A program made the translations under genes and the position numbers. A DNA stretch of 64,000 nucleotides from a virus (Duplodnaviria > Heunggongvirae > Uroviricota > Caudoviricetes): IMG/VR virus record IMGVR_UViG_3300042889_002176, positions 20,554-84,553 of that record; one strand, 5' to 3'. The notes beneath the pieces were generated by a model. It saw nothing but the letters and a program-made list of their open reading frames with translations, ran no database searches and was not told the DNA's origin. Positions within the stretch are counted from its first letter, which is position 1. The number at the start of each line of letters is the position of its first letter. Shown one piece after another: positions 23,313-46,477 of the stretch.

Positions 23313-23326
23313 TATAGGATACCAAA

Positions 23327-24297: not shown

Positions 24298-24328
24298 AAA
24301 AAGGGGCTGCTGCCCCTTTACTTTTATC
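24298..24328 (+). terminator. rho-independent terminator closing the structural block
   Basis: A GC stem aaaaggggc / gccccttt with loop tgct is followed by the T-rich tract tacttttat, immediately after the stop at 24293-24295. Confidence 0.6.
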
Positions 24329-24352
24329 TAGATTTGTAATATAATACAGCAT
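24317..24352 (+). promoter_or_regulatory. sigma70-like promoter, leaderless-type (TTTACT-17-TATAAT, ATG 5 nt downstream)
   Basis: TATAAT sits at ~24340-24345 and the start codon at 24351, so the predicted transcription start falls at or next to the ATG. The -35 match is 4/6. Confidence 0.35.
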
Positions 24353-24659
24353 GGATACTGATGCTTTAATTGCCCACGCACGAACACGTTTTGATCATGC
24401 AACTGCACGCCGTGTGCTCAAAGAAAAATACCAGGCCCGTATGCTGTTTGCCCACAGCGGCGGAATGTGGCGTGCTGGCCCTGAACTGCTGGCAGTGCTG
24501 CAGTCTGTTCCTGTTGAGGACCATGTAGTGTTACTGGATCTTTATGATACTCCTGTAAAGATAAGTCCGTTAGAATTACAACACCTGGCATTTGATCGTT
24601 GGCAAGAACAAATGAATGCATGGCTTGTGGAATTTGACCAACAACGTCAACAGCGATGA
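24351..24659 (+). CDS. hypothetical protein (102 aa), first gene of glycan island operon
   Basis: The ORF stop overlaps the next start (ATGA). Confidence 0.5.
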   Translation: MDTDALIAHARTRFDHATARRVLKEKYQARMLFAHSGGMWRAGPELLAVLQSVPVEDHVVLLDLYDTPVKISPLELQHLAFDRWQEQMNAWLVEFDQQRQQR

Positions 24660-25468
24660 CCACAGGCGCACTGATATTTGCCTTCAACAACGAAGCCACT
24701 GATTATGTGCGCTTGGCCGCCTGGAGTGCTGAAAACATTCGTCGGCACTTAAACATTCCTGTTGCAGTGGTCACTAACGCGGATCCTGCAGATCCCAGAC
24801 TCAACGCATTTGATCAAGTGGTACATGCAAAACCAGACGCCGGTGGCACACGATGGTTTGAAGACTATGCCAGCACAGTGACCTGGCACAACGCCGGTAG
24901 GGTCAACGCATATGATCTAACGCCCTGGGATCAGACTCTGGTCTTGGATGCAGACTATGTAGTAGCCAGTTCAGATCTCAAAAGAATTTTAGAATACAAC
25001 ACAGACTTTATGTGTCATCGATCGGCCGTCAACTTCAGCACTGGGCATCCTTTGAAAGGACTCAATGTTTTTGGACGGCATAGCATGCCCATGTGGTGGG
25101 CCACAGTAATGTTATTTCGTCGGTCAAACACTGCACAATATATATTTGACTGCATGCAGATGATTCGAAACAACTGGGAACATTACCGCGCACTGTATGG
25201 CATTGACAACAAGACCTATCGTAATGATTTTGCCTTGAGTATTGCTCTGGGAATTGTGAGCGGCCACACAGGCCGGGTAGATGAAATGCCCTGGCCCTTA
25301 CTGACTGTAATGCCAGACACAGTGCTGACCAAAATTGCACACCAAACTGATACATACCGCATCACATATCGCGACCCAGACAACCAATCAAAATACATTC
25401 AATGGCATACTACAGATTTTCATGCCATGGGCAAACAGCACCTGGAGAACATAATTGCGACCCATTGA
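24656..25468 (+). CDS. putative glycosyltransferase, GT-A-like (DxD motif)
   Basis: An N-terminal Rossmann-like beta-strand (ALIFAFNNEATDYVRLAAWS...IPVAVVT) and a hhhhDAD motif (TLVLDADYVV) are present. The gene is translationally coupled. Confidence 0.4.
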   Translation: MTTGALIFAFNNEATDYVRLAAWSAENIRRHLNIPVAVVTNADPADPRLNAFDQVVHAKPDAGGTRWFEDYASTVTWHNAGRVNAYDLTPWDQTLVLDADYVVASSDLKRILEYNTDFMCHRSAVNFSTGHPLKGLNVFGRHSMPMWWATVMLFRRSNTAQYIFDCMQMIRNNWEHYRALYGIDNKTYRNDFALSIALGIVSGHTGRVDEMPWPLLTVMPDTVLTKIAHQTDTYRITYRDPDNQSKYIQWHTTDFHAMGKQHLENIIATH

Positions 25469-26216
25469 AGAACAAGGTTATGTTGTGCTAGCAGTCAACA
25501 CTGCCACAGTTGACTATGTTCGTTGCGCTGCTATGTTGGTGCAAAGTCTAAAGACACAGCATCCTACTGCAAGAGTATGCCTGATCACAGATCAACCAGT
25601 AGAAGATTCTGTGTTTGATTATGTGCATGTGCTGCCGGTTGTGTCAGACAATGCCTATGCCAATGACGCAGCAGTATTTCAGTTAACGCCGTTTCGTGAA
25701 ACAATCAAGCTGGAAGCAGACATGCTGATAGCCAGTCCTATCTCACACTGGTGGGACCTGTTCAGACACCGTGATGTTGTGATCAGCACAGGCTGTAGAA
25801 ACTGGTGCGGCGATGTCAGCACTGCTCGGCATTATCGCCGAGTATTTGATCAAAATCACTTGCCTGATGTGTACAACGCTATTACCTACTGGCGCCTGAG
25901 TGAAACTGCAAAAGAATTCTTTGACCTGACACAAGATATCTTTGCCAACTGGGAACACGTTCGCACACTAATAAAGTTTGCGCCAGCAGTAGCAGACACT
26001 GATCTGGTGTATGCCATGGCTGCACAGATCATGGGTGAACACAGAGTTACCATGCCCTTTGCCACATATCCACAAATTGTTCACATGAAACCGCATCATG
26101 CAGGCACAACCGATCAGTGGACACACGAACTGATCTGGGAACATGATCCGTTACGGATAAACACAGTGGCACAATGGGGTGCATTCCATTATCACATCAA
26201 GGAGTGGCAGCCATGA
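25455..26216 (+). CDS. putative glycosyltransferase paralog (degenerate DxD)
   Basis: Paralogous to the previous protein ([22 protein letters not shown]...ARVCLITDQ, ...[12 protein letters not shown]). It overlaps the upstream gene by 14 nt. Confidence 0.35.
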
Positions 26217-26548
26217 CACCAGATGAATTCTGGAGCATACTGCATGCAGTGCCTGAAACATACCCTGTGAGTTATAGATTGTATCATGACTCCGATGGCC
26301 GACCATTATTTTACAGCATGGATGATGTGCCAGGTACATACATTGAAATAGATGCTGCAACGTATGCTCGTAGCCCCATGCATGTACATGTGCGTGATGG
26401 AAAACTAACGCAACGTGTGTGGAAAACAATCACAAAACTTGTGCCTGCTGACTCTGGATCCCCTTGCGATCTTCGCAATGTCGCTGTAATCGTCAGTGAG
26501 CACCGACCCCATCAAAAATGGACCAAGAAAACTTATGAAACAAATTGA
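26213..26548 (+). CDS. hypothetical protein (111 aa)
   Basis: An internal ATG overlaps the upstream stop (ATGA at 26213-26216): [34 protein letters not shown]... Confidence 0.45.
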
Positions 26549-27461
26549 CATAGCAGACCTAGACGTGATATTTTTGACATTTGATGAACCCAAGAAAGAA
26601 GAATACTGGGCAATCATACGCAACATGGTGCCCTGGGCGCAGCGTGTGGACGGCGTTCGCGGGTCCGACGCAGCACACAAGGCCGCTGCGGCTGCTAGCA
26701 CTACAGAACGATTCATCCTGATCGACGGGGACAACATGCCTGACGCCAAATTCTTCAATCAGACCTTGGCATTTGCTACGGCAGATTATGAATCTGCTGT
26801 GTTCCGTTGGAGAGCGAGAAATGCCGTCAACGGACTCATGTATGGCAATGGTGGACTGAGCTCTTGGACAAAAACCTTTGTGAACAGCATGCGCACACAC
26901 GAAGCCACAGACGGCCGCACAGAAACACAGGTGGAGTTTTGTTTTGATCCCTTGTACTGGGCCATGCATGACTGCTACTCAACAACCTATCCCAATGGAT
27001 CTGCTTTTCATGCCTGGCGTGCAGGATTCCGCGAAGGTGTAAAGATGTGCCTGAATCGCGGAGCCAAGCCCACACTGGAAGAATTTAAGGATCGTGTGCA
27101 TCAACGCAATCTGGACCATCTCACCATCTGGCACAACATAGGTGCAGATGTTGACCACGGCTACTGGAGCATGGCCGGCGCAAGACAAGGCACCTACATG
27201 ACCATGCTCACAAACTGGGATCATACTCAAGTGCAGAACTTTGATGCACTGGCTGAACTGTGGAAGACTGTGGAATCCAGTGATCCAAGATTGCTAGCAG
27301 GCCGTGTGGCAGAAGATCTAGATCAACAACTGGATCTGCCAATGGCCATGCTGGAAGCAGAACAAAGCAAGTTTTTCAAGCACCACTACCGAAGCAACTG
27401 GCACAATGAAGGTATCATGGTCCGAGAAATGGATGTTATTCGAGCTCAAGAAGGTTGGTAA
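26535..27461 (+). CDS. putative glycosyltransferase, GT-A-like (LIDGDNMPD DxD motif)
   Basis: ATG at 26535 gives [19 protein letters not shown]...; the track's upstream start is a GTG. The protein carries [13 protein letters not shown]. Confidence 0.35.
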
Positions 27462-27462
27462 T

Positions 27463-28563
27463 ATGACCTGGAATTGTGCCGCTATTGATCATGGAGTTAC
27501 TGTTTTCCCCAATGGGAAAATTGGACCTTGCTGTCAAATTGCCGCAGATTATCTAAAACCCATATCAGAATTATCAAATCCTGACAGATTTGCAGATTTA
27601 AAGACTCAAGACTGCCCGCCGGACCACCCGTGTAATACATGTTCGGTGGCAGAATATCATGGACTACCAAGCTATAGAAAATCATTTGATAGTACAGTGA
27701 CATCGGCTCCTGGGTTGCAGTTTGTTGATATCAGAAATACTAATCTTTGTAATTTAAAATGTAGATACTGCGGCCCACATTTTAGCAGTCAATGGGCGGA
27801 AGAACTTGACAAATTTCCGTCAATACAACAGCAAGACATAACTGATTACAAAGATATACTAATCACTGATTCATTGCATTGGATGTATTTTACAGGTGGA
27901 GAACCACTGATTAACAGAGAACACTGGGACCTGCTTGAGGAATTGATTGATAGTGGGAAATCTAATAGCATATCGTTGGTTTATAATACCAATTTGACTA
28001 CAATAAAATACAAAGATAAAAATGTTATTGACATTTGGAAACAATTTAAAAATGTCAGAGTACGATGTAGCATTGACGCAGTAGGCGCCCCATTAGAATA
28101 TATTAGATCTGGTACAAGCTGGGAAAAAATAAAATTTAATTTAACACATTTGATATTAGTGTCACAAAAATCAAATATCACAGTCGTGTTGGCACCTGTG
28201 GTGAGTATTTTAAACATGTGGTTTGTTGATGAATTATACAAATATGCTTGGTCAAACAACATTACTGTTGAACCAATTATACTGACAGGTCCTGACTATC
28301 TAGCAATAGACGTAATTCCAGACGAATTAAAATCTCTAGCCCTGGAAAAAATCACCAACATTGAATCCAGTTACCCTATAGACAAAAAAATTGTACAACA
28401 TATTAAAAATTTGATTAATAACAATCGCAATCAATTTTTATTTCAGCAAACTATTTCGCACGTATTGCTATTAGACAACTTGCGCGGAGAAAAATTATTT
28501 GAACTATTACCGTTTAAATCAATTGCAGTAGATAACATTTTACGAAATTACGAATATGAGTAA
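27463..28563 (+). CDS. radical SAM enzyme, paralog 1 (N-terminal Cys-rich twitch/SPASM-like module + CNLKCRYC core)
   Basis: ATG at 27463 (MTWNCAAIDHG..., 2 nt after the upstream stop). Cys cluster C..G.IGPCC...CPPDHPCNTC. CxxxCxxC core CNLKCRYCGPHFSSQW. A GGEPL glycine motif is present. Confidence 0.65.
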   Translation: MTWNCAAIDHGVTVFPNGKIGPCCQIAADYLKPISELSNPDRFADLKTQDCPPDHPCNTCSVAEYHGLPSYRKSFDSTVTSAPGLQFVDIRNTNLCNLKCRYCGPHFSSQWAEELDKFPSIQQQDITDYKDILITDSLHWMYFTGGEPLINREHWDLLEELIDSGKSNSISLVYNTNLTTIKYKDKNVIDIWKQFKNVRVRCSIDAVGAPLEYIRSGTSWEKIKFNLTHLILVSQKSNITVVLAPVVSILNMWFVDELYKYAWSNNITVEPIILTGPDYLAIDVIPDELKSLALEKITNIESSYPIDKKIVQHIKNLINNNRNQFLFQQTISHVLLLDNLRGEKLFELLPFKSIAVDNILRNYEYE

Positions 28564-29956
28564 CAAAGGCGATGAAACTACTGACAACAAAAGTCATTTC
28601 CTAACAGCCGCAGAAAAAATGCAGGCTGATCTGGGACCTGCCTTGTGCTTGGCTAAATGGAAACAAGTTAGCCTACACCTGCCCACAGGGCTCAACAACT
28701 CATGCTATCATCCACCTTTACACCAAATACCCATAGAAGATATTGGCCGCAATCCAAGTGCATTGCACAATACACCGTTTAAAAAATCGCAGCGCAAACT
28801 CATGCTAGCAGGCACCAAACCTGCAGAGTGCAGCTATTGCTGGAACATGGAAGCACATGACAAGCTGAGTGATAGACACTATAGATCAGGTGAACCCTGG
28901 GCAGCCAAAGATTATTCAGTAATTACCCAATCAACAGGAGATGAGGATGCCATACCTAGTTATGTGGAAGTTAATTTTAATAATGCTTGTAACTTGTCTT
29001 GCAGCTATTGCAGCCCGCAGTTTAGTTCAAGCTGGCAACAAGAAGTCGATCGACATGGCGGATATCCTACTAGCACTGTGCATAACGATCCTGGTCACTT
29101 TACCGGCCGTAATCGTCCTATTCCTGCCCGTGATCACAATCCCTATGTAGATGCCTTCTGGTCTTGGTGGCCCACGTTATACCCCGAACTGGAACACTTC
29201 CGTATGACTGGCGGCGAGCCACTTCTTGACAAGAACACTTACCGAGTATTTGACTATGTGCTGGCCAACCCCAGTGCTAAACTGCACCTAAATGTCACGT
29301 CAAACTTTAGTGTGGATGAAAAGTCCTGGCAAAAGTATCTGTCCTATGTGAAACAGCTATGCGATGGACGCATAGAACATTTCATGCAGTACGTGAGTCT
29401 AGACACCTGGGGAGCTCAAGCAGAATACATACGGCATGGCCTGGACTTTGATCTGCTGTGGGACCGAGTAAATCAATTCTTAACTGAAGTTCCCAATTAC
29501 TCAAGTCTGACATTTATTGTCACAATGAACAATCTCAGTGTACCAAGTCTGGAAAACTTGTTTGCTGGCATTCTGGGTCTGAGAAAAACCTACAGCAAGA
29601 CCTATCAGCGTGTGTGGTTTGATACTCCTGTGCTGCGTGAGCCAGCCTGGCAGAGTCTGCAGATTCTTCCTGAACCCTATGCTGACAAACTGGAGCATTT
29701 GTGGGCCTGGATGGTACGTCAAATTGAAACGGCCGAAACACCGTTTCAAGGATTCAAAGACTACGAACTCAGTCGACTGGACCGAGACATAGCCTGGATG
29801 CGAGCGGGACAGGACAAAGATCATAGTGTTGCCAAAGCAGACTTTTGGCGTTTCTTTAGTGAACATGATCGTCGGCGTGGCACCAACTTCTTGAAGACCT
29901 TTCCTGAAATGAAGTCATGGTGGGCAGAATGTGAGTATCATGCTAGGGCCGCATAA
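28556..29956 (+). CDS. radical SAM enzyme, paralog 2 (subtype B N-terminus CLAKW...SCYHPP)
   Basis: CLAKWKQVSLHLPTGLNNSCYHPP...AECSYCWNMEAHDKLSDR followed by CNLSCSYCSPQFSSSW and RMTGGEPLL. It overlaps the upstream stop by 8 nt. Confidence 0.65.
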   Translation: MSNKGDETTDNKSHFLTAAEKMQADLGPALCLAKWKQVSLHLPTGLNNSCYHPPLHQIPIEDIGRNPSALHNTPFKKSQRKLMLAGTKPAECSYCWNMEAHDKLSDRHYRSGEPWAAKDYSVITQSTGDEDAIPSYVEVNFNNACNLSCSYCSPQFSSSWQQEVDRHGGYPTSTVHNDPGHFTGRNRPIPARDHNPYVDAFWSWWPTLYPELEHFRMTGGEPLLDKNTYRVFDYVLANPSAKLHLNVTSNFSVDEKSWQKYLSYVKQLCDGRIEHFMQYVSLDTWGAQAEYIRHGLDFDLLWDRVNQFLTEVPNYSSLTFIVTMNNLSVPSLENLFAGILGLRKTYSKTYQRVWFDTPVLREPAWQSLQILPEPYADKLEHLWAWMVRQIETAETPFQGFKDYELSRLDRDIAWMRAGQDKDHSVAKADFWRFFSEHDRRRGTNFLKTFPEMKSWWAECEYHARAA

Positions 29957-31040
29957 CATAGTAGTGGACGAATGGGCTGAAGTATGGGATTTATTAAAGC
30001 CCTATGCTGTGGAAAGCTTCTGGGACTGGAAATCAGTAACCTTTGATCCCAACAAGTTTTATATTGTAGGGCGTGTGGTATTGAAAGAAAACTGGCAGTC
30101 AATCACTGACCTAGCACGCCAACACCCGGGACGCATTGTGTTTTGTAATCCTGCCGAAGGATCTGAAACAATCAAACTACAGCTCTCAAGACTGAGAATC
30201 ACTGAGCTGGTGCAGAATCGCAACATACGCATGATCGCCAGTGGCAATCTAGAAGCAGGGTTTCATGAACTCAGCACAGACTGTTACTTTAGTAACATAG
30301 TAGAATACACTGAAAATCTAGCGGCAGCCGAGTCAGATGTGTTTGCTGATCCAGTCAAACGCTATGAATTTTTGTTTCTAAATGGACGCCTCAGACCACA
30401 TCGCAAGTATCTAATAGATGCACTACGCAGTCAGGATCTGTTGAGAGATGCACTGTGGACCAATTTGGGCAGTCAGGTTGAAATGGAGTTTACGTCTGTG
30501 CTGCAAACAGCCAAACTAGAACACGTTAGACTGCTGCCCCCGGAATATGAAATACCTCGTGCCAGGCCCAATCTCAAGGCCAGTTTGAATTCAGGATTTG
30601 TCAAGCATGAATTGTTTGGCAATACCTGGGGTGACGCCATTGTCAATCCGCAGGCATACATGGACACATGTTTTAGCCTAGTAACAGAAACCATTTTTGA
30701 TTACCCCCACTCATTCAGAACAGAAAAAATCTGGAAGCCCATGATCATGTGTCATCCATTTGTAGTGGCTGCTAACACAGGCTACTATCGAGATCTACGG
30801 AATGCAGGATTTCAAACCTTTGGCCATCTGATTGATGAATCATTTGACATGATAGACAACGCACAGGATCGGGCTGACGCCGTGGTTGCAACAGTCAAAG
30901 ATATATGCTATAATGGTGCTAGCAGTTTCTTGACTGCTGCTCGAGAGGTGTGTAAATACAATTATCAACACCTGCGCGAACACAATGCTCGTGAACGAAA
31001 CCGTCTCCCACAGAATTTAATAACATATCTAAATGAATGA
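29940..31040 (+). CDS. putative glycosyltransferase, TEK-motif fucosyltransferase-like (GT10-like) paralog
   Basis: ATG at 29940. The C-terminal motif LVTETIFDYPHSFRTEKIWKPMIMCHPFVVAANTG...GFQTFGHLIDESFD resembles the FENS...TEK...P(I/V)V.G region of alpha-1,3-fucosyltransferases. Two paralogs lie on the - strand at 39.7-42.0 kb. Confidence 0.4.
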   Translation: MLGPHNIVVDEWAEVWDLLKPYAVESFWDWKSVTFDPNKFYIVGRVVLKENWQSITDLARQHPGRIVFCNPAEGSETIKLQLSRLRITELVQNRNIRMIASGNLEAGFHELSTDCYFSNIVEYTENLAAAESDVFADPVKRYEFLFLNGRLRPHRKYLIDALRSQDLLRDALWTNLGSQVEMEFTSVLQTAKLEHVRLLPPEYEIPRARPNLKASLNSGFVKHELFGNTWGDAIVNPQAYMDTCFSLVTETIFDYPHSFRTEKIWKPMIMCHPFVVAANTGYYRDLRNAGFQTFGHLIDESFDMIDNAQDRADAVVATVKDICYNGASSFLTAAREVCKYNYQHLREHNARERNRLPQNLITYLNE

Positions 31041-37136: not shown

Positions 37137-37234
37137 ACTGGCTAAAAAAATTATGGGCAAGAATCTCCCTGGAATATCGTTACCGCAAGAAACTCAAAGA
37201 GCTACGCAAAAGAGACCCTTTCATTTATAAATGA
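37133..37234 (+). CDS. small basic peptide (33 aa), candidate coupled ORF
   Basis: MNWLKKLWARISLEYRYRKKLKELRKRDPFIYK has an SD (aaggaaa) upstream and ATGA overlaps with both neighbours. It is below the ORF-track threshold. Confidence 0.3.
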   Translation: MNWLKKLWARISLEYRYRKKLKELRKRDPFIYK

Positions 37235-39752: not shown

Positions 39753-40917
39753 GAATGTCCTTGATCAAGCTATTTAAACGCTGCGTCTTGAGTTCGGCAA
39801 ATAACTGTTGGTTGTGTTCTATGTCTGCTCGTGCAGTTTCAAACCGATCTGCCAATCTATGCCGTGCCTGAGCAACTGCATCACATAGGCGTATCCAGCG
39901 TTGGGTGTTATCCTCAATGCGATCATACATGGTGTCCAACACTGTGTCAAAGGTCTTGTAGCCTAGATCACGCAGAGCTTGTAAACTGCCCGCAGGACCG
40001 GCAACAAAGAACAGTTGTCCGTGCTTGATTGGCTTGAAAGTTTTTTCAGTTAAGAATGCGCCACCGGACTGATCTGCGTCCCAGTGTGTTTCCATCACAA
40101 TGTTGCAATAACTGTTGACGTGATATTTGGATTCAGTTTCAGAATGATTGTTGCGGCTGTCCTGATCAAGTTCGTCGCTGACATAAGGTGCCTGGCCAAG
40201 AAACTTCACAGTGGCTTCACGCAGTCCGGGTACAGCGTCTATCTCAATGGGGTTGTCGTTATCTAACTCACCAGTTTCGCAGTAGCTCCAGTAACTGCGG
40301 TCCAGCACACCTGTTCGTGACAAATCTGCCATTGCAGTGGCTCTCCAGCTTTTGTGTAGTCGATTTAACACAGTGAATTCACGTTCTCTTGGTTTAGAAT
40401 GTATGGCCAGAGGTGCTTGTTCACGGTTGCGCTGATAGTACCAAAGTTCAAAGTCATTGAAGTACACAAAGCCTGGAATATCTCGTGCAGCAGAGTTAGC
40501 ACTAACAAAAATATAACAGTTGGCTGGTAGTCGTACTTGTACAGCTAATTTGTCCAATCTTTGTTTGATCCTGGCAGGATTGTCCCCTTCGTGATAGTAA
40601 AACAACACACGAATTTTCTTCTGGCACACAGCAGTAAAAATTTCAGCAGGCAACAAAGTAAAATAATCAATGCTAAAATTGAAAAAGCTCAGACCTATTG
40701 GGTAAAACGTATTGGCTGGCAAGTTGTTGTGAATGTAATGAATGTTGATTTTGACTTCATGATGGTCACAGTATTCTTGCAGTCGTAAGGGAATGGTGTA
40801 GGGAAAATGCAGATCAAACTCACGCCAGCTCTGTGTGTAAGGCCTTGCTTGGTGAGTAGCAAGTGCAGGATAGATGCGTCCTTTATCAACGCGATCAGCT
40901 ATTAGATTTAATTCCAT
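39736..40917 (-). CDS. putative glycosyltransferase, TEK-motif fucosyltransferase-like paralog
   Basis: ...YCNIVMETHWDADQSGGAFLTEKTFKPIKHGQLFFVAGPAGSLQALRDLGYKTFDTV...; paralogous to 29940..31040 and 40895..42022. Confidence 0.4.
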   Translation of the reverse strand: MELNLIADRVDKGRIYPALATHQARPYTQSWREFDLHFPYTIPLRLQEYCDHHEVKINIHYIHNNLPANTFYPIGLSFFNFSIDYFTLLPAEIFTAVCQKKIRVLFYYHEGDNPARIKQRLDKLAVQVRLPANCYIFVSANSAARDIPGFVYFNDFELWYYQRNREQAPLAIHSKPREREFTVLNRLHKSWRATAMADLSRTGVLDRSYWSYCETGELDNDNPIEIDAVPGLREATVKFLGQAPYVSDELDQDSRNNHSETESKYHVNSYCNIVMETHWDADQSGGAFLTEKTFKPIKHGQLFFVAGPAGSLQALRDLGYKTFDTVLDTMYDRIEDNTQRWIRLCDAVAQARHRLADRFETARADIEHNQQLFAELKTQRLNSLIKDIHEQYN

Positions 40918-42022
40918 TTAGCATCTCATTTAGTTCTTGCCATAACACAGCTTCAAATCCACCCCTATAAAAGTGATTCCAGTTGTGTTCTATGACTTGG
41001 TGACACTGCTCAAACAGGTCTTGTTTGGCTTCAGCAGGCAACTCGTCGAGACTACGTAACAGGCTAGTAATGCGTTCTATACGTACATCATCGTCTGCAG
41101 AATCATAGCTCTCGTCCCAGATATCTCCAAATGTTTGAAATCCGTAACTGCGCAAATACTCCAGACTGCCCTTGGTGCCCACAATTACAAACGGCATGCC
41201 CAGGGCAATGGGTTTGAATGTTTTTTCAGTCAAGTGAAGTCGTTGGCCTGTGGCCACAGTTTCTGTAACCAAGTACAACAGGCTTTCAGCTGACTCATCA
41301 AACAAGCTGAGCCAACACGAGTGCATGGGATGATCAGTTTCGTTGGCAAAATTTATAGGCAAAGTTTGTGCGGCAAACACTGATTCTATATCAGGATACT
41401 TGTTTGACAATGGTTTTACAGCATCTAGTATGCTGATATTTTCTGAAGGACACACAGAAGGGCAGCTGATATGATTGTGTGCCATTCCGTTCTTAAAGAT
41501 GTGGTACAGCATCTCCAGCCGGTGTTGTCGCTCTCCTGCTATAATTCGATTAGGTGCAATGAATGTCTTTGTAATAACACGCTCAGACGCCGGCTGGATC
41601 AAGAAAGTTTTATCGTAACCTCGATACCAATCTAGTGCTGCCCAACCGTGAAAGAAATAATACAAAGGCGTCCACCAATGCTGTTTGCACAAAGCAGCAA
41701 CATTGTCGCTGTTTTTTTCGCTGGTTACAAGATATCCGAGATTATGTAACATCACTAGCTGTTGTATGCTTGTATTTTTTAATATATCTACATTACAAAC
41801 AACTACTCTTGCAAAAGTAGGCATGTGTATGTCCAAATTTATTGGCTCTTGGTCAAAAAAGAATATATAATTGTGTTCATGTATGTCATCTCTGCCATAA
41901 TTCATCACACTGGCAGGATCACTGCGTCCAAACGGTTCGCAAAAGAATGCTCTAAAACCAGGACGGTTAGCCTTCAGCCAGGGCCAGAATGTGTTGTTGT
42001 AAATTTCATCTATTCTAATCAT
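40895..42022 (-). CDS. putative glycosyltransferase, TEK-motif fucosyltransferase-like paralog
   Basis: ...YLVTETVATGQRLHLTEKTFKPIALGMPFVIVGTKGSLEYLRSYGFQTFGDIWDESYD...; its start codon is 2 nt from the divergent start at 42025. Confidence 0.4.
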   Translation of the reverse strand: MIRIDEIYNNTFWPWLKANRPGFRAFFCEPFGRSDPASVMNYGRDDIHEHNYIFFFDQEPINLDIHMPTFARVVVCNVDILKNTSIQQLVMLHNLGYLVTSEKNSDNVAALCKQHWWTPLYYFFHGWAALDWYRGYDKTFLIQPASERVITKTFIAPNRIIAGERQHRLEMLYHIFKNGMAHNHISCPSVCPSENISILDAVKPLSNKYPDIESVFAAQTLPINFANETDHPMHSCWLSLFDESAESLLYLVTETVATGQRLHLTEKTFKPIALGMPFVIVGTKGSLEYLRSYGFQTFGDIWDESYDSADDDVRIERITSLLRSLDELPAEAKQDLFEQCHQVIEHNWNHFYRGGFEAVLWQELNEMLNGIKSNS

Positions 42023-42024
42023 TA

Positions 42025-44223
42025 ATGTTTGACGTATTTTATTCTGGAAAGAAACCCAACTTGTTTGTGCATGAGCAGGAAGCTGACAGCATTGAGCATG
42101 CGCAGACTCTGAGTCGTACTAGGTATTTCTGGTGGATCACATACTTAGCTGATTATAGCACACATGATTGGGATTTTCAACCTGTGCCTTGGCAAAGCGA
42201 GTACACTCACACATGGCCCAGTCAACATCATGAGTATTCGGGCACATACCTTGTGCCCAGGGGCGGCGAGATCAAATATCACTTTCATGATCGAATTATT
42301 CCAAACAAAAGTTCGACTATGCATTTCTATACTGCAATGTCAAACGCAGAGTTTGATTACTCCTGGGCACCACATCCGCATGATCCTCCTTACATCTATG
42401 TGTTTGGCAACCAGTGGTGGCCAGCAGAGATCATGCCCACAGTAGAATATCATGTGCCGGGTGCAACTGAACGCAAGTACATGACAACACCAAGAGCTGA
42501 GCTGACACAAAATCCCAATCGACCCTGGTACAACGTGGTCAACAGCGACATGGACTATTCATGGGTACCTGATCCTGGAGATGTTCCTTACATCTATGTG
42601 TTTGGCAACCAGTGGTGGCCAGCAGAGATCATGCCCACTGTGGAGTATCGTGTGCCAGGCGCAACTGAACGCAAGTATGTTGCATGGCCACGTGCTAGTT
42701 TGCTAGCAAACTCTGCTAGATGGACTGTGCCTGATTCAGTTGATCCTGCTGGTGTAGACTTTAGCTGGGTACCTGATCCTGGAGAACCGCCCTATGTGTA
42801 TCAGTTTGCTACACAACATCAAAAGACTGGCGGACCTGTTTATCGTGTGCCCGGTGCGGTAGAAGTCAAGTACCTTGCTGAACTAAAAATTCGCACAGTG
42901 GGCAAAGCCACAGCCATATACGAAATTGATCACATGGATGGCGCCGCTGGACAGATACCCAACATCACTCGTCGAGTGCGATACTTTGACAACTATAGAG
43001 ATACCTTGATACGCTTGGCCAAGAGCATAGGCACAGAACATGAATATGTCTGGGTATGCAGCAGCATCTGTGATTACACTGACTTTGACTTCTCGTGGCA
43101 TCCCGAACAATGGCAAGCCACAATGCTGCATGTGTTTGCAAGTGATACAGAAAAGTTTGGAGACACATTCTTCATGCATGTGCCTACCTTTGCTGAGTAT
43201 GCAGAACGCAAGGAATTGCTGGAATGGTATGATTGCAATTTTGTCAGTGTTGGTGTACCTCGCAGACCCATGCCCGTAGTACAACACGATCAAGACAGTC
43301 ATGTGGATGTGGTTCGTACCCGAAACTTTGCCGGTCCACTGGCAGTGTTCACACAGTCCGACTACATGAGCACAAACTTGGTCACTGTGCCACTATGGAG
43401 AGAACAAACCAAGACCATAGTTCCGTTGAATCCTGGTGCCAGCAGTGTGGTTGTACCTCGAACGGCCATACCCTACATCAAGACGCAGCTATATGATTAT
43501 CCCTATGTAGACAAGACGCACTGCATGCTAAAGGATCAGCTACAGGATATTGTGTTCATCTCCAACGGTGAACCCAATGCTGAGCAACATTACAAAAGAT
43601 TGAGTTTGTTGCCCAAGGCTAATCGCCTGGTGCGTGTGAGCAACATCAATGGTCGTGCAGCAGCATATCATGCAGCAGCTGAGGCCAGCACCACACCCTG
43701 GTTCTTTGCTGTGTTTGCCAAGCTGGAAGTGGACATTGACTTTGACTTTACTTGGCAACCTGATCGCATGCAACAGGCCAAGCACTACATCTTCCATGCC
43801 CAGAATCCTGTTAATGGCCTAGTATACGGACACCAGGCCATGATTGCATACAACCGGCAATTAGTATTGGATAACCCGGGTATAGGCCTGGACTTCACAC
43901 TGGACTCACCGCATGAAGTGGTGCCTATCTTGAGTGGCGTGGCACACTATAACACTTCACCGTGGTCAAGCTGGCGCACAGCGTTTCGTGAATGTATCAA
44001 ATTGAAAGCCAGCTTGCCTGATGTGGAAAGTGAATATCGGTTAGGCAAATGGCTTGATGTCAACAGCGACGAAGCAGATCCTCAGTGGAGCCGATGGGGT
44101 GCAGAGGATGCTGTGAATTACTACGATGCAGTCAACGGCAACTTTGATGCGCTGAAGAAAAGCTACGAGTGGGAGTGGCTAGCTAGTTATGCTTTTATCA
44201 AACGCAGTCTAGTACCGAACTAA
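42025..44223 (+). CDS. hypothetical protein (732 aa) with five D(F/Y)SWxP(D/E)P-type repeats, three of them near-identical
   Basis: The repeats are DYSWAPHPHDPPYIYVFGNQWWPAEIMPTVEYHVPGATERKY, DYSWVPDPGDVPYIYVFGNQWWPAEIMPTVEYRVPGATERKY and DFSWVPDPGEPPYVYQF...VPGAVEVKY. Degenerate copies follow (DFDFSWHPEQW, DFDFTWQPDR). Confidence 0.5.
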   Translation: MFDVFYSGKKPNLFVHEQEADSIEHAQTLSRTRYFWWITYLADYSTHDWDFQPVPWQSEYTHTWPSQHHEYSGTYLVPRGGEIKYHFHDRIIPNKSSTMHFYTAMSNAEFDYSWAPHPHDPPYIYVFGNQWWPAEIMPTVEYHVPGATERKYMTTPRAELTQNPNRPWYNVVNSDMDYSWVPDPGDVPYIYVFGNQWWPAEIMPTVEYRVPGATERKYVAWPRASLLANSARWTVPDSVDPAGVDFSWVPDPGEPPYVYQFATQHQKTGGPVYRVPGAVEVKYLAELKIRTVGKATAIYEIDHMDGAAGQIPNITRRVRYFDNYRDTLIRLAKSIGTEHEYVWVCSSICDYTDFDFSWHPEQWQATMLHVFASDTEKFGDTFFMHVPTFAEYAERKELLEWYDCNFVSVGVPRRPMPVVQHDQDSHVDVVRTRNFAGPLAVFTQSDYMSTNLVTVPLWREQTKTIVPLNPGASSVVVPRTAIPYIKTQLYDYPYVDKTHCMLKDQLQDIVFISNGEPNAEQHYKRLSLLPKANRLVRVSNINGRAAAYHAAAEASTTPWFFAVFAKLEVDIDFDFTWQPDRMQQAKHYIFHAQNPVNGLVYGHQAMIAYNRQLVLDNPGIGLDFTLDSPHEVVPILSGVAHYNTSPWSSWRTAFRECIKLKASLPDVESEYRLGKWLDVNSDEADPQWSRWGAEDAVNYYDAVNGNFDALKKSYEWEWLASYAFIKRSLVPN
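42388..42440 (+). repeat. 53-bp perfect direct repeat, copy 1 (inside 42025..44223)
   Basis: ccttacatctatgtgtttggcaaccagtggtggccagcagagatcatgcccac is identical to the sequence at 42586-42638. Confidence 0.8.
42586..42638 (+). repeat. 53-bp perfect direct repeat, copy 2
   Basis: Identical to 42388-42440. Flanking codons are diverged, which indicates a recent in-frame duplication or gene conversion. Confidence 0.8.
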
Positions 44224-45307
44224 TAATGTATTCTACTTCTGAGTCTGTGAGCTCAGGATAGATAGGCAGACTCAGTGCTCGTCTACTCAATGAACTTGCA
44301 GCACTAAGAATACTAGGTCCAGCATACTGTTGATATGCCGCCAGTTCGTGCAATGGATGTTGGTAATGTACTCGAGTCTCTATGCCCGCAGACTTCAGAT
44401 CTGCTTGCAGTTGATCCCGATTGCTGGTATCAATAACAAATTTGTGAAAACAGTGAGTAGACACATTTGAATCGTCGATCAAACAACGAAACGGTGCTTT
44501 ACCAAATGCGTCTATGTAGCGCAGTGCAATTTTTTCCCTGCGAGCTTGCCACGCATCTAGATACACAGTCTTGACCATCATTTGCGCACAGTCTACTTCG
44601 CTCATGCGTGAGTTAGTGCCTGTTTGTGTATGACCAGATCGTTTACCGTTGTCACTCCAGTTACGAGCATAGTCACTTAGATTGCGGTCGTTGGTGACTA
44701 CGGCACCACCGTTGCCGTAGTTGTTTAGATTTTTCATGGGATCAAAACTGATAGCACTGGCTTCGCCCACACGATGGCAACGGTCAGACAACCAGTGTTG
44801 TGCTGCATCTTCAATTATCAGGTGGCTAACACGGCGTAGACTATCAGACAATGCTGCGCCATACAATCCAATGCCAAGTATGGCTTCGTAACTCAGGTGT
44901 GGTGGTTTATCTCTAAATTGCATGTTGCCATTGGCATCGGTGTCAACCAAGTGTATGTTCCATCCTGCTCGTACAAATGCATTTGCACTGGCAGGAAATG
45001 TCATGGCAGGAATTAACACTGTAGGTGGTGTTGGCTGGGGATGCAGGCTATGCTCTGTGCGGTAATAGCCAGCCAGTATCTCCAGAGCCTGTGTACCCGA
45101 ATGGCACAGTACTGCATAATTCGAATGATTTTTTTGAGCCAACCATTCCTCAAACTGTTGAGTGAACTGGCCGTTCATGAGATTGCCAGATGCTAGAACC
45201 TGGTCCGTTGCATCCAGTATCTCCTCTCTGAGATTATTATACTGTCTTTGTAGACCAGTAAACGCTATTTGAAAGCCACTCATAGTAATTTTGGAATCCT
45301 TGTTCAA
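44198..45307 (-). CDS. DegT/DnrJ/EryC1/StrS-family PLP-dependent sugar aminotransferase
   Basis: The N-terminus ...FTGLQRQYNNLREEILDATDQVLASGNLMNGQFTQQFEEWLAQKNHSNYAVLCHSGTQALEIL is the family signature. Its 3' end overlaps the convergent + gene by 26 nt. Confidence 0.7.
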   Translation of the reverse strand: MNKDSKITMSGFQIAFTGLQRQYNNLREEILDATDQVLASGNLMNGQFTQQFEEWLAQKNHSNYAVLCHSGTQALEILAGYYRTEHSLHPQPTPPTVLIPAMTFPASANAFVRAGWNIHLVDTDANGNMQFRDKPPHLSYEAILGIGLYGAALSDSLRRVSHLIIEDAAQHWLSDRCHRVGEASAISFDPMKNLNNYGNGGAVVTNDRNLSDYARNWSDNGKRSGHTQTGTNSRMSEVDCAQMMVKTVYLDAWQARREKIALRYIDAFGKAPFRCLIDDSNVSTHCFHKFVIDTSNRDQLQADLKSAGIETRVHYQHPLHELAAYQQYAGPSILSAASSLSRRALSLPIYPELTDSEVEYIISSVLDCV

Positions 45308-46205
45308 CGTCTACTCGGGGATCAAAGCCCAGTATGGTTCTTGCACGATCGATGTTTAATGCGCCACGACTGGGAAAGTCTGCATCTCGATCTCGACATT
45401 CAATGGTACCAGAACCCACGATCTTCACAATCATTTCGGCTGCTTGTAACAAACTCACTGAATGTGATTTGGTAATGTTGTATGTTCGGTTGGCACTCAT
45501 GATTCTAGTTGCAGCAGCAACCACACCATCGGCAGCATCATCCACATAGGTAAAGTCCAGTGTTTCGCCTGCACCATTGACTTTCAGCACACCGCCACGC
45601 ATGGCGGTCAGCATGAACTTGGCCACCACACGATCCTCCACATCGAGCGGTCCGTACACAGCACTGGGACGAAGTATCACATACTCCATGCCGGTTCTGC
45701 GAGCATAATCTTTGACCAACCATTCACCGGCCAGCTTCATGATACCATACTGTCCTTGCGGCCTGCACTCGTCGTCCTCTAACACTTGATCTTCAAAGTC
45801 GCCGTAGACCATGCTGCTGGACATGTACACAAAGCGGCGGACCTGGTGTTTTTTGGCACTCTCAAGAAGATTGATTAGACCACGCATCATGACATCAGCA
45901 GCCAATGCAGGGTTGGCATTGACTACTTTTTGTCTGGGAAAGCTGGCACAGTGTATGATTACCTCTGGTGTCTCTTTACCAATAATGGCATCCATACGAT
46001 CTGCATTTTCAATGTAGTCGTGATAGTGACTACATGGTGCTAGTTTTTTAAGACGTTCACCAATCAAATAGTCAACTTCTTCACGCGGAATAATACCGTA
46101 GGTGGTTTGGCTATCCACAATGCTCACTGTGTCATTGCGCTGCTGCAAACGAGCCGCCACATTGTGCCCAATCAGCCCTAGTCCGCCGGTTATCAATACT
46201 TTCAT
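45237..46205 (-). CDS. NAD-dependent epimerase/dehydratase (extended SDR)
   Basis: ATG at 46205 (MKVLITGGLGLIGHNVAARL...) gives the GxxGxxG Rossmann motif; a YxxxK-type region (MSSSMVYGD) follows. Confidence 0.7.
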   Translation of the reverse strand: MKVLITGGLGLIGHNVAARLQQRNDTVSIVDSQTTYGIIPREEVDYLIGERLKKLAPCSHYHDYIENADRMDAIIGKETPEVIIHCASFPRQKVVNANPALAADVMMRGLINLLESAKKHQVRRFVYMSSSMVYGDFEDQVLEDDECRPQGQYGIMKLAGEWLVKDYARRTGMEYVILRPSAVYGPLDVEDRVVAKFMLTAMRGGVLKVNGAGETLDFTYVDDAADGVVAAATRIMSANRTYNITKSHSVSLLQAAEMIVKIVGSGTIECRDRDADFPSRGALNIDRARTILGFDPRVDVEQGFQNYYEWLSNSVYWSTKTV

Positions 46206-46477
46206 TGGTTGCCCCATTTCATTTGATACCATGTATACACTTTTTCATCCATCACAGTAAAGTCTCCGGCTCTGCTGTATTCCCAGTATCTTCCGTCTCG
46301 ATATGTTCCTGCGTGTCCAAAACTCGTGAGCAGCCAGTTTTCTGCAGCCATACCTGGCCACCCTTTTATCTTGTACAGTGTGATTGGCACAAACTGTTCA
46401 CCATCCCACACTTGTTTCTTCACAGGCGGCGGCAGTGTGACTTCAGCATCTACATATTCAATTTTTTGTGTCCACAT
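46202..46477 (-). CDS. hypothetical protein (91 aa)
   Basis: Internal ATG (MWTQKIEYVDAEVTLPPPVKK...) of the track ORF 46202..46591. Overlaps the next gene (ATGA). Confidence 0.4.
   Translation of the reverse strand: MWTQKIEYVDAEVTLPPPVKKQVWDGEQFVPITLYKIKGWPGMAAENWLLTSFGHAGTYRDGRYWEYSRAGDFTVMDEKVYTWYQMKWGNQ

Follow-up and report, generated by a model that had tools for sequence, protein, structure and literature searches.

An uncultured jumbo myophage related to Rak2 carries, immediately 3' of its tail-fibre genes, a ~22 kb gene block (24.3–46.2 kb of the 64-kb window, the whole stretch of DNA analysed here). The block is a core module throughout the clade, and our analysis supports its interpretation as a gene set for building and tailoring a glycan or amino sugar. 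The explanation that we tentatively favour is that a decorated amino-sugar chain is built in the host cytoplasm on an acceptor that the phage itself makes, with the fibres as the probable candidates. A glycan/aminosugar tailoring function had already been proposed from the DNA letters and their ORFs (the sequence-only reading). It is borne out by five proteins with predicted glycosyltransferase (GT) folds, a DegT aminotransferase, a short-chain dehydrogenase/reductase (SDR), a carbamoyltransferase and an amidinotransferase (Table 1), and by sugar-tailoring accessory genes in relatives. Two elements were not part of that reading: a peptide ending in KRDPFIYK, and a counterpart of the radical SAM (rSAM), amidinotransferase and carbamoyltransferase sub-module in Bdellovibrionia.

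Layout and conservation of the gene block

The plus-strand genes from 24351 to 38712 abut or overlap one another, and the sole intergenic "gap" (95 bp, 37136–37231) is occupied by a conserved 33-aa ORF. The nearly gapless operon described in the sequence-only reading was thus found, as was its terminator/promoter pair at 24.3 kb, in the form of consensus matches. Tail-fibre gene 21525 is preceded by TGTATAAATA, which the -10 region here, TGTAATATAATA, resembles; both are likewise consensus matches only.

The block is syntenic, with the same gene order and a fixed place after the tail-fibre genes, in more than 150 IMG/VR loci, and the order of fibre genes 20888–24295 followed by the module is identical in 71 and 80 IMG/VR loci. 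Synteny in this many related loci means that the block is more than a chance assembly. The cultured Ralstonia phage RsoM2USA carries a reduced module (an SDR, a GT8-like pair, and two 26496-like genes with an rSAM between them) at the equivalent place, after the genes for the baseplate wedge, giant fibre and tail fibres; its baseplate wedge is only ~34–37% identical over the aligned segments. As the base composition of the block also matches the remainder of the window, the region is a core module and not the unusual acquisition that the word "island" had implied.

Relatives differ in accessory genes. An FkbM/RfbT-like methyltransferase is inserted in the module of 26 related loci, and other inserts encode class-I methyltransferases, a hexapeptide acyltransferase, a PfkB kinase, a PIG-L deacetylase, a GFO/IDH/MocA oxidoreductase, a cupin and an extra SDR. 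These are classic sugar-tailoring enzymes, like those of O-antigen clusters. Conserved proteins without family match were those at 24351 (Pfam and PHROG scans), 26174 (Pfam scan) and 36099 (Pfam, PHROG and PDB), the last of which also showed no relation to the other families of the block. All proteins of the block are acidic (candidate GTs, pI 5.4–6.3) and soluble: no 19-residue window exceeded a Kyte-Doolittle value of 1.6, except one in the rSAM at 27406.

Table 1. Features of the gene block and their positions in the window.
Feature	Position	Strand	Basis or remark
Terminator-like hairpin, G+C-rich with T-run	24300–24319	+	Precedes operon
Promoter-like site TTTACT-17-TATAAT	24317–24345	+	Just 5' of ATG at 24351; consensus match only
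102-aa protein, first gene of operon	24351–24659	+	71/71 related loci, 52–91% identity
GT8-like GT-A glycosyltransferase (predicted)	24656–25468	+	DAD motif at residues 98–100; fold closest to GT8 structures
Paralog of GT8-like enzyme	25455–26216	+	EAD instead of DAD; phrog_1903 match
124-aa conserved protein	26174–26548	+	62 related loci, median identity 53%
GT-A-like protein with (V/I)DGD(N/T) motif	26496–27461	+	Weak GT2 match, E 0.09
N-terminal-twitch rSAM enzyme 1	27406–28563	+	NF033640, 248 bits
N-terminal-twitch rSAM enzyme 2	28556–29956	+	NF033640, 321 bits
Third TEK-family member (predicted), via C-terminal nucleotide-sugar-binding half	29931–31040	+	Inside rSAM array
N-terminal-twitch rSAM enzyme 3	31033–32370	+	NF033640, 300 bits
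N-terminal-twitch rSAM enzyme 4	32360–33619	+	NF033640, 384 bits
N-terminal-twitch rSAM enzyme 5	33616–34830	+	NF033640, 342 bits
N-terminal-twitch rSAM enzyme 6	34808–36106	+	NF033640, 283 bits
345-aa strongly conserved protein	36099–37136	+	69 loci, median identity 65%, ~120 invariant columns
Unannotated 33-aa ORF MNWLKKLWARISLEYRYRKKLKELRKRDPFIYK, ending KRDPFIYK	37133–37234	+	Overlaps 36099 stop and carbamoyltransferase start
NodU/CmcH/TobZ-family carbamoyltransferase	37231–38712	+	Both Pfam domains
Amidinotransferase, AGAT/StrB1/HsvA/SxtG family	38709–39752	-	PDB sequence matches
GT-B fold glycosyltransferase (predicted), TEK family	39736–40917	-	Predicted fold model
GT-B fold glycosyltransferase paralog (predicted), TEK family	40895–42022	-	Paralogy to 39736
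732-aa multidomain protein	42025–44223	+	Three tandem repeats, conserved central domain, C-terminal 26496-like domain
DegT/DnrJ/EryC1/StrS-family PLP sugar aminotransferase	44198–45307	-	Pfam PF01041, E 2.6e-56, 192 bits
Extended SDR, GalE-like nucleotide-sugar epimerase/oxidoreductase	45237–46232	-	Pfam Epimerase, E 8e-44

Enzymes of the block

Two GT8-like GT-A and three GT-B proteins are predicted, by model or paralogy, to have GT folds. The sequence-only reading had named three GT-A-like DxD proteins. One of these, 24656, is GT8-like, with D100 invariant in its family (132 homologs) and D98 present in at least 90%, and 25455, kept in 68 loci, joins it as a paralog (27% identity over 264 aa, E 1e-14). 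Both are assigned a GT-A Rossmann-like fold nearest to GT8 structures. The Pfam scan of the window proteins gave no Glyco_transf_8 or related match for either, only 2 of the 132 homologs match Mannosyl_trans3, weakly, and a profile of the family had no match among PDB sequences. Several of the top structural matches to the GT8-like enzyme glycosylate proteins, namely glycogenin, AgtA, GlyE and UGGT. These matches, the Ser+Thr content of the gene directly upstream of the block (30%, 23327–24295) and the -10 likeness to tail-fibre gene 21525 are hints toward a protein acceptor.

The third protein, 26496 (start at 26535 in the sequence-only reading), is placed with the GT-A enzymes by its DGD motif and weak GT2 match only, and its profile had no match among PDB sequences. 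It is 39% identical to its RsoM2USA relative; the family is common to the C-terminus of 42025 and to RsoM2USA ORF350 and ORF348, and the DGD motif is kept in every ortholog and both RsoM2USA copies. The motif suggests that one or two proteins beyond the GT8-like pair may be GT-A-like.

Three TEK-motif GT10-like proteins had been placed on the minus strand. Three paralogs with a predicted GT-B fold were indeed found (39736, 40895 and 29931), one of which, 29931, lies on the plus strand. The C-terminal 111 aa of 40895 and 39736 are 38% identical, and the C-terminal ~110 aa of 29931 show homology to 40895 at E 2e-12 and to 39736 at E 4e-8, with E266/K267 of its TEK motif invariant in alignment A1. 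The family has over 6000 relatives in metagenomes, and no Pfam domain was found in any of them. The GT10 label was dropped for 39736 and 40895, which have the GT-B fold and neither a Pfam Glyco_transf_10 match nor GT10 as the clearly best fold match. Two T4 DNA glucosyltransferases are the top fold matches of the 39736 model, marginally above other GT-B enzymes (FucT scores 11.1), an observation that counts against a fibre glycan; PBCV-1 GTs (2p6w, 3oy2, 8asa) and Mimivirus R699 are also among the GT fold matches. The 42025 protein was rejected as a TEK/GT-B paralog and belongs to a different family. It has no match in Pfam, PHROG or PDB, contains three copies of DYSWxPxPxDPPYIYVFGNQWW, and in its 26496-like domain (hhalign probability 100% to A9) DGD is lost and reads FAK.

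All six rSAM genes proposed earlier score above the curated whole-protein cut-off of NCBIfam NF033640 N_Twi_rSAM (170 bits), and CxxxCxxC, GGEP and the N-terminal auxiliary-cluster cysteines are kept in each. Across the six paralogs and RsoM2USA ORF202, residues C139, C143, C146, G201–P204, C50, C92 and C95 do not vary. The SPASM Pfam domain precedes the rSAM core (residues 31–96 in rSAM 4). rSAM 1 occupies the variable slot of the module, which measures 0 to 2.3 kb among relatives, and its best relative elsewhere is only 60% identical. rSAM 2 is 35% identical to RsoM2USA ORF349, with the same gene order, and rSAM 3 is 52% identical to ORF202, which lies near the RsoM2USA carbamoyltransferase gene. 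SPASM/twitch rSAMs are typically peptide maturases or BtrN-like; their usual action on peptides speaks against a glycan substrate. Bdellovibrionia chromosomes also carry rSAM arrays beside homologs of the amidinotransferase or the carbamoyltransferase, with Asp_Arg_Hydrox (Asp/Asn-hydroxylase-like) genes and without the GT families. This cellular counterpart is a new finding; it fits a peptide or other non-glycan substrate. WelO5-like, PhyH and ketosynthase genes are among the neighbours of cellular homologs.

The NodU/CmcH carbamoyltransferase was confirmed by both Pfam domains, Carbam_trans_N (137 bits, E about 1e-40 to 1e-39) and Carbam_trans_C (158 bits, E about 2e-47 to 2e-46), against gathering cut-offs of 24 and 27 bits; as a NodU equivalog it was rejected (132 bits, cut-off 1000). 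It is 46% identical to RsoM2USA ORF199, and the carbamoyltransferase gene of cyanophage S-CAM1 adjoins heptose-nucleotide genes, which fits a glycan role. The amidinotransferase, also recognised earlier at superfamily level, matches seven PDB sequences, including AGAT, StrB1 (E 2.5e-12), HsvA and SxtG, at E 1.6e-14 to 5.9e-10, in three aligned stretches that cover the N-terminus, middle and C-terminus. Of the catalytic triad, C332 aligns with AGAT Cys407 (GGISCCTQDIRRRG versus GGFHCWTCDVRRRG) and H193 with His303, and the Asp254 position falls just beyond the aligned stretch. It is the most conserved protein of the module (80–96% identical in 80 loci), and a Gemmatimonadaceae homolog lies near GT2 and PMT_2 genes.

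The proposed DegT/StrS-type aminotransferase has, besides its Pfam match, the PLP-binding lysine in SFDPMKN. Its closest NCBIfam model is PseC (4e-42), and it scores under the equivalog cut-offs for PseC, WecE, ArnB and DesI. The gene at 45237 had been called an NAD epimerase/dehydratase. The epimerase part stands, with GalE-like SSSMVYG and YGIMK motifs; the protein is probably not a 4,6-dehydratase, as it has no TDE/TSE motif and reaches only 115 of the 365 bits required by the dTDP-glucose dehydratase model. Together, the GalE-like SDR and DegT would form an amino-sugar branch.

A conserved 33-aa ORF before the carbamoyltransferase gene

The strongly conserved 33-aa ORF shares an ATGA overlap with each neighbour and is translationally coupled to the carbamoyltransferase gene, which is a new finding. 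It occurs in 71 clade loci, a marine contig and RsoM2USA, and on at least 120 viral contigs across IMG/VR. Its N-terminus is variable and its C-terminus fixed. As synonymous sites vary while the C-terminus is invariant, selection acts on the amino-acid sequence. Among 88 loci with enough downstream sequence, 77 have a carbamoyltransferase on the peptide's strand, and in 40 of these no more than 10 nt separate its start from the stop of the peptide. The peptide co-occurs with the carbamoyltransferase in 35 of 39 loci, with rSAMs in 12 and with the amidinotransferase in one; on the marine contig its neighbours are a SPASM-rSAM gene on one side and the amidinotransferase gene on the other. Its simplest reading is an arrest-type leader peptide, or else a small partner, by which the carbamoyltransferase would be controlled or assisted.

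Possible products and acceptors

In the explanation that we favour, host nucleotide sugars would be epimerised or oxidised, the SDR, or a twitch rSAM as in BtrN-type chemistry, would make a keto group, and DegT would transaminate it. The amidinotransferase would turn the resulting amine into a guanidino group, the carbamoyltransferase would O-carbamoylate a hydroxyl, and each rSAM paralog may perform one radical tailoring step (oxidation, epimerisation, deoxygenation or C–C/C-methyl chemistry). Several GTs would join about five to eight residues into an oligosaccharide. The block has no hydrophobic segments and no phosphoglycosyltransferase, Wzx or Wzy, which argues for cytoplasmic rather than lipid-linked assembly. 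The acceptor would most likely be a phage-made protein, either the tail fibres or the 4,886-aa fibre, whose gene lies just 5' of the block; the latter was also named in the sequence-only reading, and the fibres stay our best guess from gene position alone. The window was found to encode no nucleotidyltransferase, and dehydratase motifs are missing from the SDR; the favoured explanation thus does not account for the source of the keto sugar, which counts against it.

The Mimivirus fibrils and the PBCV-1 capsid carry glycans made by virus-encoded machinery. The block resembles these systems in its soluble, cytoplasmic, lipid-carrier-independent GTs with SDR/DegT-type amino-sugar enzymes and in its location near structural genes, from which the acceptor is deduced here; unlike the block, they belong to eukaryotic viruses and are not known to have an rSAM array, amidinotransferase or carbamoyltransferase. 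Mycobacteriophage GT genes also adjoin structural genes, and their products glycosylate virion proteins (Freeman et al. 2023, cited in PMC12619734). Those systems differ in having one or two GTs and simple glycans, in Gram-positive siphophages, and are not known to have sugar-tailoring or rSAM genes. O-antigen and surface-glycan clusters share the several GTs, the amino-sugar enzymes and the lineage-variable methyl-, acyl- and oxidoreductase tailoring genes, whereas the block, with its soluble proteins, has no Pfam match to Und-P-linked polysaccharide families (initiating phosphoglycosyltransferase, flippase/ABC transporter, polymerase/ligase) and no Wzx, Wzy or Wzz.

The aminoglycoside-like logic of the sequence-only reading holds as an analogy. 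Like pathways with BtrN and BtrS, StrB1 and TobZ, the block combines a twitch rSAM, DegT/StrS, an AGAT-type amidinotransferase and a NodU/TobZ carbamoyltransferase, which gives a chemical logic from hydroxyl to ketone, amine and guanidine. Unlike them, it has no cyclitol synthase, resistance or export genes, its twitch is N-terminal instead of C-terminal, and it has six rSAMs, at least five GTs and a phage structural-gene context.

A serious, if unlikely, rival is a peptide-derived or small-molecule product. The rSAMs, amidinotransferase and carbamoyltransferase would act on a cyclitol/sugar scaffold or on a ribosomal peptide, whether from the KRDPFIYK ORF or from elsewhere, and GTs would then decorate it. 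The product made during infection would be either a glycosylated molecule of RiPP or mycofactocin type or a guanidino/carbamoyl glycoside similar to aminoglycosides. The invariant C-terminus of a peptide within the operon, its amino-acid-level selection and its place on the marine contig fit this, as do the usual substrates of SPASM/twitch enzymes, the GT-free Bdellovibrionia arrays and the WelO5-like, PhyH and ketosynthase neighbours. Mycofactocin is itself glycosylated and methylated, and the mycofactocin and PQQ systems also place a small fixed-C-terminus ORF beside SPASM-type rSAM genes. However, the peptide tracks the carbamoyltransferase and not the rSAMs or amidinotransferase, and its variable N-terminus, fixed C-terminus and ATGA coupling are more readily reconciled with a regulatory leader than with a leader-core precursor. 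No MftB/PqqD-like chaperone, peptidase or other protease, transporter, RRE-like domain, 2-DOI or inositol-phosphate synthase was found with the block, and seven or eight GT-like proteins far exceed known RiPP or aminoglycoside clusters. A peptide or small molecule also leaves the fixed post-fibre position in two very distant phages unexplained.

It is improbable that the GTs protect the phage genome from host nucleases by putting a decorated sugar on one of its bases. Phages hypermodify DNA with diverse glycans via GT-A and GT-B enzymes and sugar-nucleotide genes, and these clusters, in which a sugar epimerase or nucleotidyltransferase partners the GTs, share both enzyme classes and T4-BGT-like folds with the block (Pyle et al., bioRxiv 10.1101/2023.12.21.572611). 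The enzyme system here is soluble and cytoplasmic, and ThyX and nucleotide-metabolism genes adjoin its minus-strand part. However, Pfam and PHROG scans of the examined ORFs of the window (64 kb of a ~350-kb genome, about 340–365 kb) revealed no C5-methyltransferase, 5mYOX/TET/JBP or ThyA-type enzyme and only ThyX, a canonical dTMP synthase family; such pathways are defined by a GT that adjoins either a C5-cytosine methyltransferase together with 5mYOX/TET or a ThyA-type hydroxymethylase. Moreover, the lead of the T4 glucosyltransferases over non-DNA GT-B enzymes is trivial, the candidate GTs are all acidic, five to eight GTs and six rSAMs surpass any known DNA glycan pathway, and the module sits with fibre genes rather than replication genes. 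DNA, another target suggested earlier, is thus unsupported within the window.

It is very improbable that the block serves to remodel the LPS, capsule or S-layer glycan of the host envelope during infection, for example against superinfection: the O-antigen-like enzyme set with accessory genes that differ among relatives, the carbamoylation of LPS core heptose by NodU-type enzymes in bacteria and the Gemmatimonadaceae gene neighbourhood would fit it, but the block lacks membrane-associated enzymes as well as an initiating transferase, a flippase, a polymerase and a ligase, it is the strictly conserved core of a lytic-type jumbo phage instead of a variable moron, and so long a pathway would be of little use to a cell about to lyse, so that the host surface glycans considered in the sequence-only reading are disfavoured as target.

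No earlier study is known to have dealt with this block, which is kept throughout a very abundant phage group.

A core module behind the fibre genes

The block at 24.3–46.2 kb is a virus-encoded glycosylation or glycan-tailoring module, with an uncharacterised radical SAM (rSAM), amidino and carbamoyl sub-system and a new conserved peptide. Its proteins are referred to below by the start positions of their genes. On the 5' side of the block lie genes for a fragment of a baseplate hub, for a baseplate wedge of 1,143 aa, for a protein of 4,886 aa and for three fibre-like proteins. The wedge matches phrog_10646 (E 2e-279) and has ~33% identity to the wedges of Rak2-like jumbo phages of Erwinia, Serratia, Escherichia and Klebsiella. 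Among GenBank phages, no nucleotide similarity to the block and no near-identical phage were found. All of the genes called in the block by the sequence-only reading are real, and those on the plus strand abut or overlap from the start at 24351 through 38712. The first of them, 24351, was considered as a RiPP precursor, and no feature spoke in favour of this.

The strand switches within the module are very tight. The genes of the divergent pair lie 2 bp apart (42022/42025), and the convergent pairs overlap by 4 bp (38709–38712) and 26 bp (44198–44223). With gaps this small, promoters and terminators must sit within coding sequence. This tight arrangement is kept in relatives.

The block had been called an island. 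It is not one in the sense of a horizontal acquisition, as its GC content (0.42–0.48) is that of the flanks and its synteny extends across the clade of IMG/VR relatives. The amidinotransferase is 80–96% identical in 80 IMG/VR loci, on contigs of up to 364 kb, and the GT8-like protein is 50–93% identical in 71 loci. Gene order is fixed across these loci: the fibre genes (20888–24295), 24351, the GT8-like pair, 26174 and 26496 are followed by a variable slot, an rSAM gene, 29931, four rSAM genes, 36099 and the carbamoyltransferase, then by the opposite-strand amidinotransferase with two GT-B genes, and finally by 42025, the DegT aminotransferase, the short-chain dehydrogenase/reductase (SDR) and ThyX. 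Only one of the six rSAM genes, 27406, lies in the variable slot. The block is a core module of the lineage, and is therefore probably needed for infection rather than accessory.

Among GenBank phages, the GT8-like and 26496-like families occur only in RsoM2USA, a cultured phage of Ralstonia. Immediately behind its genes for baseplate wedge, giant fibre and fibres, it carries a reduced module (see the table). None of these ORFs is annotated in the RsoM2USA genome paper, the 'moraphage' paper deals with another lineage, and the literature searched held nothing on the module, on this rSAM family in phages or on the RsoM2USA ORFs. The phage module, peptide included, was also seen at 52–87% identity in two contigs of the 'Haliscomenobacter sp. 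EUL_031' MAG (183 and 148 kb) and in a Legionellales MAG contig. These three almost certainly belong to jumbo phages and were placed in a bacterial bin, which is at best a weak hint of a Bacteroidota host.

Features of the module, its surroundings and its counterparts in other genomes
Feature	Sequence	Position	Strand	Remark
Hairpin with T-run	Window	24300–24319		Operon start
Promoter-like site	Window	24317–24345		Before ATG at 24351
ThyX	Window	46810–47496	−	Downstream of module
SPFH/Band-7 protein	Window	49792–50589	−	Downstream of module
MoxR-type AAA ATPase with VWA/metallopeptidase-like partner (DUF2201)	Window	52434–55867	−	Downstream of module
AAA_33 kinase-like protein	Window	61992–62528	−	Downstream of module
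KRDPFIYK peptide	Compared locus L001	~19030–19136
KRDPFIYK peptide	Compared locus L240	~9240–9340
KRDPFIYK peptide	Compared loci L243–L362
SDR	RsoM2USA	ORF358		Reduced module
GT8-like pair	RsoM2USA	ORFs 353/352		Reduced module
26496-like protein	RsoM2USA	ORF350		Reduced module
rSAM protein	RsoM2USA	ORF349		Reduced module
26496-like protein	RsoM2USA	ORF348		Reduced module
Second rSAM protein	RsoM2USA	ORF202		Elsewhere in genome
Carbamoyltransferase	RsoM2USA	ORF199		Elsewhere in genome

Enzymes of the module and their occurrence in other genomes

The identification of six rSAM genes was borne out: all score above the curated cut-off of the NCBIfam model NF033640, 'twitch domain-containing radical SAM protein' (N_Twi_rSAM). 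The rSAM core is preceded, on its N-terminal side, by a SPASM/twitch-like cysteine region, and all six proteins retain CxxxCxxC, GGEP and the auxiliary cysteines. As they share only 20–33% pairwise identity, they are old paralogs. Profile searches of the PDB gave generic rSAM matches only (8vpo, viperin, SkfB, BlsE and MoaA), with no solved structure or close characterised relative for the family; to our knowledge, no member has been characterised.

The carbamoyltransferase, the DegT aminotransferase and the SDR are each a strong Pfam match, as had been proposed. The amidinotransferase, for which Pfam gave no match, does match AGAT, StrB1, HsvA and SxtG among PDB sequences, and its catalytic Cys and His align with those of the known enzymes. 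The SDR contains the motifs SSSMVYG and YGIMK and lacks the TDE/TSE motif of 4,6-dehydratases and decarboxylases, so the label 'dehydratase' is not supported. The keto-sugar for DegT must therefore have another source: it may be supplied by the host, by the SDR acting as an oxidase or by a BtrN-like rSAM oxidation.

Three proteins had been read as GT-A-like glycosyltransferases (GTs). Two of them, 24656 and 25455, are GT8-like paralogs, whereas 26496/26535 has only a conserved DGD and a marginal GT2 match. The TEK family comprises 39736, 40895 and the C-terminal half of 29931. Its proposed GT10 relationship was not borne out, whereas a glycosyltransferase fold was recovered, as the structure model of 39736 is a GT-B enzyme (pLDDT 84). 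A large protein search with the alignment of this family gave more than 6000 metagenomic relatives, the matches being close relatives without annotation. The C-terminal domain of 42025 belongs to the 26496 family, with FAK in place of DGD, and this was the sole link when all island families were compared pairwise with hhalign; the 345-aa conserved protein 36099 showed no kinship to any other island family. Profiles of the TEK, 42025, 36099, GT8-like and 26496-like families had no match among PDB sequences, and neither Pfam (E up to 10) nor PHROGs gave a useful match for the unannotated island proteins. By these PDB searches, 36099 has no recognised fold, nor do the three N-terminal repeats and the conserved central domain of 42025. 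In 42025, a unit of ~65 residues occurs three times in tandem (window 42330–42900, residues ~105–290 of 732), with the core D(Y/F)SWxPxPxDPPYIYVFGNQWW...VPGATERKY, and related FDFSWxP segments follow both of its GT-A-like cores. The repeats look as if a single sub-structure had been multiplied.

In general terms, the reading of the block as a glycan or amino-sugar tailoring locus was upheld, and relatives add sugar-tailoring genes inside the module. Within its boundaries they encode 217 extra ORFs in 71 clusters, most commonly an FkbM/RfbT-like methyltransferase (26 loci). Also encoded there are an additional SPASM-rSAM (12 loci), class-I methyltransferases, a second SDR, a hexapeptide acyltransferase, a PfkB sugar kinase, a PIG-L de-N-acetylase, a GFO/IDH/MocA oxidoreductase and a cupin. 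This set is a standard nucleotide-sugar tailoring toolkit, which varies among relatives as in O-antigen loci. The FkbM/RfbT-like gene is inserted at the convergent junction of the amidinotransferase and carbamoyltransferase (loci L002–L081, e.g., L022:11026–11835), which in the window is a 4-bp overlap, and other relatives hold different tailoring genes in the slot 3' of 26496. In the Synechococcus phage S-CAM1 (111.0–114.1 kb), behind the gene of a NodU-like carbamoyltransferase come those of a nucleotidyltransferase, a carbohydrate kinase and a phosphoheptose isomerase, which suggests carbamoylation of a nucleotide-heptose.

A genome collection was scanned for N_Twi_rSAM homologs with an alignment of three rSAM sequences, and 80 genome loci were taken. 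The homologs stand in arrays, with one to nine copies in 17 kb, and 22 of 132 neighbouring proteins are rSAMs themselves. Carbamoyltransferase homologs neighbour the arrays in seven of these 80 loci and amidinotransferase homologs in six, mostly in Bdellovibrionales. On two chromosomes of Bdellovibrionia (L238 and L239, on contigs of 0.9 and 3.0 Mb; see also L200/L188), the amidinotransferase is found amid 6–11 rSAM/SPASM genes. Two Asp/Asn-beta-hydroxylase-like genes lie alongside these arrays, and the whole looks like a bacterial gene cluster that has not been described before. In a marine phage-like contig, the amidinotransferase adjoins two SPASM-rSAMs and an RpiB-like isomerase. The arrays and their partners recur in cellular loci that lack the GT8-like and TEK families. 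The rSAM array, the amidinotransferase and the carbamoyltransferase therefore make up a unit, and phages have joined it with GTs. Among GenBank phages, N_Twi_rSAM is confined to RsoM2USA and a few Vibrio phages. The cultured Vibrio phage K566 (255 kb) has four clustered N-terminal-twitch rSAM genes (161.5–168.3 kb) and no other gene in common with the module, and nt-1-like phages have one such gene each.

A conserved peptide at the carbamoyltransferase

An apparent 95-bp gap at 37136–37231 encodes MNWLKKLWARISLEYRYRKKLKELRKRDPFIYK. This 33-aa ORF (37133–37234, plus strand) ends in an invariant KRDPFIYK. It shares bases with the genes on either side, its start with the stop of 36099 and its stop with the start of the carbamoyltransferase, to which it is translationally coupled. 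The peptide recurs in 71 loci of the clade, in a distant contig binned as Legionellales, in the marine contig and, unannotated, in RsoM2USA. A degenerate DNA pattern for KRDPFIYK and the stop codon matched at least 120 viral contigs. Among the matches listed, most peptides are 33–51 aa long; their N-terminus varies strongly and their C-terminus is fixed. All synonymous positions of its codons vary; selection is therefore on the peptide and not on the DNA.

Among the same listed matches, 39 loci have at least 3 kb of sequence on either side; 35 of these hold a carbamoyltransferase no more than 3 kb away, and 12 an rSAM. Of the 88 listed loci with enough downstream sequence, 77 have the carbamoyltransferase on the strand of the peptide, and in 40 its start is no more than 10 nt from the peptide stop. 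A tblastn search of GenBank phages with the 33-aa peptide gave no match, probably an effect of low-complexity filtering. No peptide was found near the carbamoyltransferases of phages C48C1, S-CAM1 and AG-345-D19, and the literature searched contained nothing on the motif DPFIYK. Judged from its sequence and position, the peptide would suit a role as leader or arrest peptide for the carbamoyltransferase, or as a small partner of that enzyme, and a RiPP-like substrate is also possible.

Target of the product and significance

We favour fibre glycosylation, which is a serious possibility that falls a little short of probable. The place of the module after fibre genes is common to two very distant phages, the fold neighbours of the GT8-like enzyme include protein-glycosylating enzymes, and the operon's −10 element is similar to that before a fibre gene. 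In addition, the fibre-like protein just before the module (23327–24295, plus strand) contains 30% Ser+Thr, 11% Gly and 14% Ala, with a pI of 4.4; the 595-aa fibre protein beside it has a C-terminal region that we take to resemble an intramolecular-chaperone domain. As these links (position, fold neighbours, Ser+Thr content and −10 element) are circumstantial, we only infer a virion-fibre acceptor.

The product may instead be a peptide or small molecule, which we consider unlikely. DNA modification is quite improbable. The partners that define known phage DNA-glycan clusters, namely a C5-methyltransferase, a TET/JBP dioxygenase and a ThyA-type hydroxymethylase (bioRxiv 10.1101/2023.12.21.572611), are all absent from the 64-kb window, with ~290 kb of genome beyond it. 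The candidate GTs are all acidic, and none of the downstream minus-strand proteins in the table is a DNA base-modifying enzyme. Least plausible is host envelope remodelling: no island protein has a membrane segment, Pfam found no initiating transferase, flippase, polymerase or ligase, and the module is not a lipid-linked export pathway.

Virus-encoded glycosylation is established in giant eukaryotic viruses and a few mycobacteriophages, as is DNA glycan hypermodification in some phages. We know of no earlier description of a phage module of ~20 genes with six rSAMs, an amidinotransferase and a carbamoyltransferase. The fixed partners defined here are a first basis for assigning chemistry to the N_Twi_rSAM family, and KRDPFIYK may represent a new class of arrest or leader peptide that is widespread in viral contigs. 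As RsoM2USA is cultured and has a reduced module and the peptide, these questions are directly testable.

A doubtful joint reading is that the N-terminal-twitch rSAM arrays, AGAT-type amidinotransferase, NodU-type carbamoyltransferase and KRDPFIYK peptide may constitute one unrecognised biosynthetic system. If so, jumbo phages abundant in the environment, phages of the sea and the predatory Bdellovibrionia would have this system in common, and KRDPFIYK would act as a new kind of leader, arresting the ribosome in response to a metabolite of the pathway. Radically tailored groups bearing guanidino or carbamoyl functions would be put on a glycan or directly on fibre-like adhesins. By merging this chemistry with approximately seven GTs, the phage would make a new kind of virion-fibre glycoconjugate, which would affect host recognition or shield the fibres.
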